Under the pieces are notes generated by a model. The model was given only the letters and a program-made list of their open reading frames with translations, searched no databases and was not told the DNA's origin. 4,380 nucleotides of DNA from the IMG/VR virus record IMGVR_UViG_2711768059_000007. One strand, written 5' to 3'. Below, one piece after another: positions 1,201-4,182 of the stretch. This DNA comes from a virus. Its lineage: Duplodnaviria; Heunggongvirae; Uroviricota; Caudoviricetes. The position numbers were made by a program, and so were the translations under genes. Position 1 is the first letter of the stretch. Each line of letters starts with the position of its first letter.

Positions 1201-4182
1201 TCAGCTGATACTGATACCTGCTGTGGATTTCTTCATCACCACAACCAGCAGATCGCTGATACTGGTTGTTGGTGTCCAGTCATTCGCTCCTGATGAAGAT
1301 ACGGTGAATGTCAGTGTCAGCGTCCCCTGTCCGGCAGGCATATCTATAACTGAGGAAAATACGCCCTGAACATCCGTCGTGGACTGATTAAAAATCTCCT
1401 GACCATTGCGGGTCACTCTTAACCGGCAGGTTGAATACCAGTATGACTGTTGGTTATTACTGTTGAAATTCTCATGCTTACCACCGCGGAATAACACTGG
1501 CGGTATCATGACCTGCCGGTCAAATTTCTGATCATCACTGATTCTTACCGTGATGGTGCCGCTGGCATAAGTGCTCGTGCGGGGGAAAGACTTGCTGACC
1601 GTTTTGACAATATCGCCTTCAATCTGGTTGGCTGACAGTTTCCCCTTAATCTGACAGTTCTCATTAATCGTGACGTTGTTGAGCGTCCCGGAGTTCGCAT
1701 TCACACTGCCACTGATATCCGCATTTTTAGCGGTCAGCTTTCCGTCCGGTGTCAGGGAAAATGCCGGTGGATTTCCACCGCTGGTAATGGTGGGGGCCGT
1801 CAGGCGCTTCAGGAACACGTCGTTCATGAATATCTGGTTGCCCTGCGCCACAAACATCGGCGTTTCATTCCCGTTTGCCGGGTCAATAAACGCGATACGA
1901 TTGGCGGCAACCAGAAACTGGCTCAGTTTGCCTTCCTCCGTGTCCTCCATGCTGAGGCCAATACCCGCGACATAATGTTTGCCGTCTTTGGTCTGCTCAA
2001 TTTTGACGCCCCACATGGCATTCCACTTATCGTTAGCATCCTTCCACTCTTTCGAAAACTGCTCCAGTTTGCTGGCGTTATCCTCCGTCAGGTCGACTTT
2101 TTCCAGCAGCTCCTTGCCGAGATGGGATTCGGTTATCTGGCCTTTGAAAAAATCCAGGTAACCTTCCGCATCATCGCTCGCCCGACCGACGGCCTCCACA
2201 AATGCCGATTTGCCAACGGTGTTCACACTGCGGATATAAAAGTAATAATCATGGCCCGGTTTGATATTGATACTGGCGGCTATCCAGTACAGCGCCGTAC
2301 CAAGATAGCGGGCTGTGGTTTCAACCTGCCTGATATCCGCAATCCGCTTTTCCGAGAACCAGAACTCAAACTGTACCGTCGGATCATAAACCGCAAGATG
2401 CGGCGTGGCGGTTATCTGAAAATAGCCCGGCGTCAGCTCAATCCGAGACGGCGCTGCCGGTGCGGCAATCCGGAACGATACCGATGCCGGATCGCCCTGC
2501 TGTCCCCACGCATTTACCGCCCGGACTGTCAGCCTGTAGTTCCCCAGCGCCAGTTGCGTGAAGCGGTATGTGGTTTCCGCCGTCCGGGCCGTGCTGACCA
2601 GCCGCTCACTGCCGTCATCCGCTGCCACGGTCAGGCGAAGCAGGAAACTCACGCCCTTCACCACCTTCGGCGTGTCCCAGCGGGCCAGTACCTGATACTC
2701 CCCGCTGTCTGCGGTGACTTCGGCAGTCAGGTGCTGCACCGCGGGCGGCGTGACACCATTCACCGTGCCGCTCTGGTCGCCGTCAAAGTGCGCCCCGTTA
2801 TCCACGATGGCTTCTTTTTCCGGTACATGCTGCACGGCAGTGATGGCATACGTGCCGTCATCGTTCTCACGGATACTCACACAGCGGAACAGGCGCTGGC
2901 GCAACGTCGGCAACTTCAGCCCCCATACGCTGTATCCGGCAACGCCGTCAGGAACACGGCTCACTTTTACCTTCACGCCGTCGGTGACGGACTGGACCTC
3001 CACGCTGACCGGATTGCCACTTCCGTCAACCAGGCTTATCAGCGTGGTACCGGAGGATGGCAGCGTGATTTCACGGTCGAGCGTCAGCGTCCGGGTCTGG
3101 CTGTTCACCGCCAGCACGCGCCCGCCGGTGCTGATACCGGCATAGTCATCATCGCAGATTTCAATGACATCGCCCGGCACATGGCGAAGCCCTTCTGCGC
3201 CCACGCTGAAATCCACGGTCTGCGTTTCCAGCAGTTCTGTTTTAATCAGCCACAGCCCGGCGCGATGTGCCTGCCCCCGGCTGGTACAGCCAAAGGCATC
3301 CATCTTCGTGACGTTACGACCGTAACGGGCAATGGCCTGCGTGTCCTCCACAAGCTCTGTCGCCGTCTCCCAGCCGTTATTCGGGTCAATCCAGTTCACC
3401 TCAACGGCATTATGGCGGTCCTTCAGGGCGCTGAAGCTGTAGCGGAACGGCGCGCCATCATCCGGCATCACCACATTACTGCGGTTATAGGTCCACACCT
3501 TATCTGATGGTCGGTCCTGCACGAACGTCAGCGTCTGCCCGTTCCATACCGGCATACAGCGCATCGCCGAGCAGAAATCACTGAGCACATCCCACGCCTT
3601 GCGCTGTGTGGTCAGCCAGGCATTACAGGTGATGCGCGGCTCCGTGCCGCCAAAGCCGTCCGGCACTGACTGGTCGCAGTACTGGCCGATGACATACAGC
3701 GCCCATTTATCCACATCCGCCGCACCAAGACGTTTCCCCATGCCGTAGCGCGGGTGGGTCAGCATATCCCACAGACACCAGGCCATGTTGTTGCTGTATG
3801 CCGGTTTAAACGTTCCGTCCCAGATACCGCTGTATTGCCGCGTCTGCGGGTTATAGTTCGACGGCACCTGCAGAATGCGCCCGCGCAGATGATAATTACG
3901 GCTCACCTGCTGGCTGCCGAACTGCTCCGAATCCACCTGCACGCCGACCAGTGCCGTGTTCGGGTAGCCCTGTTTCACATCGATGATTTCGGTGTATGAC
4001 GACCAGAGCGTTTTGTTCTGCAGCTGGTCTGTGGTGCTGTCCGGCGTCATCCTGCGCATCCGGATATTAAACGGGCGCGGCGGCAGGCTACCCACCACCA
4101 CCGAGGCCAGATACTGCGAGGTGGTTTTGCCCTTAATGGTGATGTCTTTTTCCGTCACCCAGCCACCGTTACGTTGGTGTCC
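1201..4182 (-). CDS. J: Tail tip / host specificity protein J (central fibre protein), 5'-truncated; the upstream end is bounded by adapter sequence, not by a real start codon
   Basis: The minus-strand ORF 1201..4266 from the track is collinear with lambda J, from my recollection, from ...[27 protein letters not shown]... through the central conserved region (…[25 protein letters not shown]…, …[24 protein letters not shown]…) to a C-terminus …[10 protein letters not shown]. Stop is TGA at 1203..1201. J-like sequence begins at about codon 31 of the track ORF (nt ~4176). The track start at 4266 is a TTG inside artefactual sequence. The roughly 110 N-terminal residues expected for a lambda-type J are absent. 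Confidence 0.9.

Follow-up and report, generated by a model that had tools for sequence, protein, structure and literature searches.

The outer-membrane protein that serves a lambdoid phage as its receptor, and hence the range of strains open to infection or lysogeny, is set by the tip of its J protein. In phage lambda, the binding of trimeric gpJ to LamB goes with a large conformational change of the tail tip and a closed-to-open transition (Ge and Wang 2024, PMC11101478). Brödel et al. (2024, PMC11338833) fused the C-terminal parts of gpJ from natural prophages onto lambda gpJ at residue 964 and used a lamB deletion recipient to find gpJ variants with another receptor. Their lambda-A8 gpJ chimera gave OmpC-dependent DNA delivery in the lamB deletion strain, and when A8 and 1A2 chimeras were assessed against 23 OmpC variants, 21 of the 23 gave efficient delivery with A8, 1A2 or both (PMC11338833). 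This OmpC-type J allele has already been used to retarget lambda particles for gut gene delivery. Two PDB entries released on 2026-01-28 describe the A8 protein: 9wca ("Closed state of A8 gpJ 713 central tail fiber") and 9wcb ([quoted passage not shown]), the latter with three chains named "Outer membrane porin C".

A second characterised OmpC binder is vB_EcoS_phi330 (PV189401), a Stx2a siphophage (Pankowvirus) that carries stx2a and whose J is annotated as 'tail fiber protein'. When phi330 was screened on 54 Keio outer-membrane mutants, lysis was abolished by the ompC deletion only; the phage formed no plaques on the BW25113 ompC deletion strain, and chromosomal Plac-ompC restored them (Vandierendonck et al. 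2025, PMC12502783). In the AlphaFold3 model of the same study, one hairpin of phi330 J (E953-S962) is inserted into the OmpC barrel and another (A1015-P1020) is placed on the rim (PMC12502783). Phage 434 is also described there as targeting OmpC, and the receptor of phage 21 is not stated in Feiss et al. 2022. A 2026 receptor-prediction preprint deals with Drexlerviridae-type GpJ domains and names lambda's GpJ only as excluded from one alignment.

Here, we analysed a stretch of viral DNA of 4,380 nucleotides, referred to as the window, most of which encodes J. It is very probable that positions ~1240-1642 encode a naturally exchanged receptor-binding domain of the A8/phi330 type at the C-terminus of J, which would use OmpC instead of LamB. 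We aligned J with the J proteins of lambda, 21 and 434 using MAFFT, and the J of phi330 was also fetched for comparison. The last 158 residues, from a shared NVTI motif to the end of J, were treated as the module, and the preceding 833 residues as the upstream part. In global alignments, the upstream part was 97.5% identical to lambda, 97.6% to 434 and 73.7% to phi330 (about 78% at the DNA level), whereas the module was 46% identical to lambda (71/153), 47% to 434, 81% to phage 21 and 98.7% to phi330. The original prediction had held that the last ~158 residues differ substantially from lambda J while the part upstream is near-identical; both halves agree with these values, the 46% from pairwise alignment lying far below the roughly 90% taken as the mark of a lambda-type C-terminus.

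Each described system resembles the locus in part. Like the window, the A8 chimera carries an A8-type tip on a J body of the lambda type, but the graft at lambda residue 964 is artificial, whereas the mosaic in the window is natural, and four substitutions separate the two modules. phi330 has the same module type and the same lom allele type on a different J body. The lambda domain solved on LamB (PDB 8xcj, 8xcg; PMC11101478) shares with the window the family PF12421, the length of 158 residues from NVTI and the position at the end of J, and its central fibre has the same closed and open states, but its receptor is LamB rather than OmpC. Phage 21 has the nearest module among classical lambdoid phages, although it has no lom and its J contains an extra divergent segment upstream. 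Finally, 434 matches the J body and lom of the window at 92-96%, yet its module belongs to a separate lineage.

The J gene, its neighbours and the adapter junction

J, lom and the start of stf are all encoded on the minus strand and belong to a lambdoid prophage (Table 1). Positions 1 to 4176/4177 matched lambdoid phages at up to 96.8% (Turner, 2H10, PhiR30_1) and E. coli chromosomes at up to 99.6% (WS0115A, 700462), and a match to the window was present in 5,005 of 5,426 complete E. coli genomes. As a J-lom-stf region, this part of a lambdoid prophage is a very ordinary one.

Table 1. Positions of the features assigned in the window, with the basis of each assignment
Feature	Positions	Strand	Basis
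stf, N-terminal part (MAVKISGVLKDG…)	1-470, ATG at 470	minus	translation and annotations under matches; runs off the window
lom (Ail/Lom outer-membrane beta-barrel protein, 199 aa)	535-1134	minus	PF06316, E = 7e-121
Terminator-like hairpin followed by T-run, between J and lom	1164-1183	minus	consensus scan for intrinsic terminators
J (central tail fibre / tip attachment protein)	1201-4176	minus	ORF list, DNA identity, Pfam domains
Pfam PF12421 Ig_GpJ_C domain	1204-1575	minus	J residues 868-991 of the 991 present; hmmscan E = 3e-36, 124.9 bits
Putative exchanged receptor-binding cassette core, A8/phi330 type	1240-1642	minus	blastn breakpoints, identity profile
Hairpin 2 (ANDWTP; phi330 A1015-P1020, ANNWTP), predicted OmpC rim contact	1273-1290	minus	AlphaFold3 description (PMC12502783), alignment
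Hairpin 1 (phi330 E953-S962), predicted to enter the OmpC barrel	1447-1476	minus	AlphaFold3 description (PMC12502783), mapped to the window
Conserved junction common to lambda, 434, 21 and phi330 types	1643-1800	minus	alignment; all references at least 0.79 in 1776-1677
Illumina Nextera adapter read-through, non-biological	4177-4255	plus	4177-4209 matches CTGTCTCTTATACACATCTGACGCTGCCGACGA at 31/32 (local alignment), then degraded P5 tail and poly-A run
djlB-like fragment (E. coli chromosomal J-domain gene)	4257-4380	plus	about 81.5% identity, blastn distant mode

The J frame is open through all 991 codons present and ends at a stop codon at 1201-1203. It begins at the equivalent of lambda J residue Q142, and the N-terminal 141 residues are missing because of the adapter junction described below. 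Between 1643 and 4176, the DNA is 96% identical to lambda J (blastn). Pfam searches returned PF24801, PF13550, PF24421, PF24489, PF09327 and PF12421 in this order, all above the curated cut-offs. Apart from the missing N-terminal residues, the domains follow the order FNIII-A, Phage-tail_3 hub, two Ig-like domains, tail-tip fibre and C-terminal receptor-binding domain.

The position in the tail operon also fits: in the window, J precedes lom and stf. In WS0115A, the closest genome, the gene order is tape measure, M, L, K (C40 peptidase), I, J, lom and stf. Its J is intact, with 1132 residues; of the 991 that it shares with the window copy, 3 differ, none of them among the last 158. The window's lom belongs to the 434/phi330 type, with a DNA identity of 0.89-0.98 to these phages against 0.44-0.75 to lambda. 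A terminator is annotated in phage 434 at the position equivalent to the hairpin between J and lom. In WS0115A, an IS66-family element (ISCro1-like tnpA, tnpB and transposase; L005 1-3470) interrupts the stf that lies beyond lom and makes it a pseudogene, so the side tail fibres have been lost in the nearest relative of this prophage.

All matches to phages and to E. coli stopped at 4176/4177, where a copy of CTGTCTCTTATACACATCTGACGCTGCCGACGA, which we take to be the Nextera transposase adapter, begins. No match was found when positions 4150-4380 were compared with E. coli genomes by megablast, because this part consists of the adapter and a divergent djlB fragment. At 81.5% identity, the djlB-like fragment is far more divergent than the prophage part (99.6%); a second Enterobacteriaceae genome in the sample is a possible source, as is a low-quality read end. 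The contig is chimeric here, with the adapter joining J to the djlB-like fragment. The TTG start at 4266 of the "1021-aa" ORF is therefore an artefact that gives J a spurious N-terminus. The practical lesson is that the contig of the window is contaminated with adapter sequence.

The same junction bears on whether the gene could be a dead remnant of a defective prophage, with a domain that has no function. We consider this unlikely. The absence of the first 141 codons of J and the interrupted stf of WS0115A would fit such a remnant, but the truncation coincides exactly with the Illumina adapter and is therefore an assembly artefact rather than a deletion, and the open frame and the full-length J of WS0115A also speak against it. 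Moreover, decay of this kind bears on the viability of the prophage and not on the identity of the domain.

The receptor-binding domain and the evidence for OmpC

PF12421 is described as 'Tip attachment protein J, C-terminal receptor binding domain', and its match lies at the extreme C-terminus of J. On the translated segment, the match scored 129.6 bits (E = 1e-37; residues 35-159, stop position included) against a gathering cut-off of 26.2 bits. The best PDB sequence matches were 9wca and 9wcb, which aligned with a 299-residue query without gaps (E = 1e-193), followed by lambda gpJ (8xcj and 8iyk, E about 1e-128). The segment could also be aligned over its whole length with the domain of lambda gpJ that is bound to LamB in 8xcj. 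The PF12421 match and this alignment support the original view that the C-terminal ~158 residues are probably the receptor-binding domain. A single-sequence AlphaFold2 model of the last 209 residues was poor (pLDDT 51); with this model, Foldseek placed 9wca and 9wcb first (98% identity, E = 8e-22), a result that reflects the sequence and not an independent fold.

We compared the module with the two OmpC binders. It was identical to phi330 J at 156 of 158 residues (98.7%), with 98.8% identity in DNA, and to A8 gpJ (9wca) at 154 of 158 (97.5%). From the window to A8, the substitutions are S35N, T36S, V103A and D133N in module numbering. The "GpJ A8" DNA in the supplement of PMC11338833 contains two exact strings of 18-19 nucleotides from the window. 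The residues of hairpin 1 are identical in the window and phi330. Hairpin 2 carries a single N-to-D change (N133D), which is one of the two differences between the module and phi330; N is found in phi330, A8 and phage 21, and D also in WS0115A. In addition to the divergence itself, the original prediction had taken a swapped module as a sign that the receptor is not LamB, and the use of OmpC by the near-identical phi330 and A8 tips, together with entry 9wcb, argues for this.

The same J tip is widespread. The 403-nt core was 100% identical in strain W2-5, and 644 E. coli records carried it at 99% identity or more and another 867 at 95-99%. With relatives of the allele counted as well, 2,856 of 5,426 complete E. 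coli genomes had it. The same tip occurred in dozens of long-tailed phages of the Stx1a, Stx2a and Stx2c types, and in YYZ-2008, CP-1639, 2H10, Turner, PhiR29_2, PhiR30_1 and PhiR70_1. For long-tailed Shiga-toxin phages with the same module, the J tip sets the receptor too. By its close matches, the module is evidently a known, structurally solved and very common OmpC-type receptor-binding domain of J rather than a novel one. How common this variant is, and that it had been characterised before, went beyond what the original prediction knew. The window can now be annotated with confidence as J with an OmpC-type receptor-binding domain, and no new question is opened.

The few substitutions raise the matter of whether this copy is a J receptor-binding domain for something other than OmpC, such as OmpF, LamB or another porin. 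Lambda J can gain the use of OmpF through a few point mutations, and N133D falls within the hairpin predicted to touch the OmpC rim. A change of receptor is nevertheless very unlikely here: only 2-4 of 158 residues differ from proven OmpC binders, the hairpin predicted to insert into the barrel is unchanged, and A8 itself tolerates many OmpC variants (PMC11338833). Furthermore, the identical 158-residue module in the intact J of WS0115A and the identical core in W2-5 speak against it, and the module is therefore a common natural allele. We infer from the near-identity to characterised binders that the window copy, with V103 and D133, binds to OmpC and belongs to a functional phage. Judging from the predicted rim contact, N133D could alter which OmpC variants are recognised. 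It is conceivable, if rather doubtful, that N133D marks a natural sub-allele with a shifted preference among OmpC variants and that, together with V103A, it represents a small step in an arms race between J and OmpC.

In an OmpC-binding tip, three copies of the domain would dock on trimeric OmpC and not on the maltoporin LamB; they would sit at the end of the trimeric central tail fibre, on a J body that is of the lambda type in its other parts. Binding to OmpC would then switch the fibre from the closed to the open state, the step which in lambda opens the tail tip for DNA ejection. As in lambda, the paired closed and open A8 entries (9wca/9wcb) indicate that these two states also exist with OmpC.

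Breakpoints of the exchange and base composition

In the MAFFT alignment, identity to lambda J was 0.82-1.00 per block of 40 columns up to about lambda residue 972 and 0.29-0.56 thereafter. At the DNA level (blastn), the 96% identity to lambda and 434 stopped sharply at position 1643, and identity to 434 resumed at 1239. By these two limits, the exchanged core lies at ~1240-1642, somewhat narrower than the 1201-1680 proposed earlier. In the comparison with 434, both flanks of this core were more than 92% identical. A profile in blocks of 100 nt was of the lambda/434 type over 4176-1677 and of the phi330 type over 1676-1177, where identity to phi330 was 0.97-1.00 and identity to lambda 0.48-0.64. 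Between adjacent blocks, identity to lambda dropped from 0.92-0.99 to 0.64 or less. The stretch that differs from lambda spans the J tip and lom; relative to 434, the J tip alone differs.

The same cassette, at 97-100% DNA identity, sits in phi330 on a J body that is ~78% identical overall (0.55-0.97 per 100-nt block). Together with the conserved flanks, this indicates homologous recombination. The conserved junction upstream of the core likely served as the 5' crossover flank for the exchange, as judged from the alignment, and the graft point at lambda residue 964 chosen by Brödel et al. falls within it (PMC11338833). On the downstream side, recombination would have taken place in the last ~13 codons of J, the intergenic region and lom. 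Such a cassette pattern is classic lambdoid mosaicism. That the divergence instead arose in place, by rapid point mutation under host-range selection and with no exchange of a cassette, is most improbable: receptor-binding domains do evolve fast, and the module is homologous to that of lambda and of the same length at 46% identity, but the abrupt fall between neighbouring blocks, the recurrence of the same allele on the phi330 backbone and in many Stx phages, and the closely matching 434 flanks on either side all speak against it.

We also determined the base composition of J. The GC content was 47.5% for 1201-1680, 52.5% for 1681-2400 and 60.7% for 2401-4176, and GC3 followed the same trend (0.56, 0.63 and 0.74, respectively). 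In lambda J, the last 480 nt have 54.2% GC, the preceding 720 nt 52.6% and the part further upstream 59.7%. The segment had been described as richer in AT than central J, which is literally correct (47.5% versus 64-67% GC in 2401-2640), but most of the difference is a large step at ~2400, which precedes the divergence breakpoint by 720 nt in the direction of the gene and is identical in lambda J. Relative to its lambda-identical neighbour (1681-2400), the module was 5 points lower in GC, a difference that was not significant (z = -1.7); relative to lambda's own last 480 nt, z was -2.1. The modules of phages 21 and 434 also have 46-48% GC. A mildly AT-richer tip thus seems common among non-lambda alleles and is weak evidence alone. 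Low GC was accordingly set aside as a sign of foreign origin, for which it is weak at best given the step shared with lambda and the z value against the neighbour; the real evidence for exchange is the identity breakpoints.

In phage 21 J (L002 498-3980), the receptor-binding domain is preceded by a further divergent segment, at about 1777-2176 of the window, with a DNA identity to the window of 0.58-0.66 over 1877-2176. Therefore, mosaicism of J is not limited to the tip.
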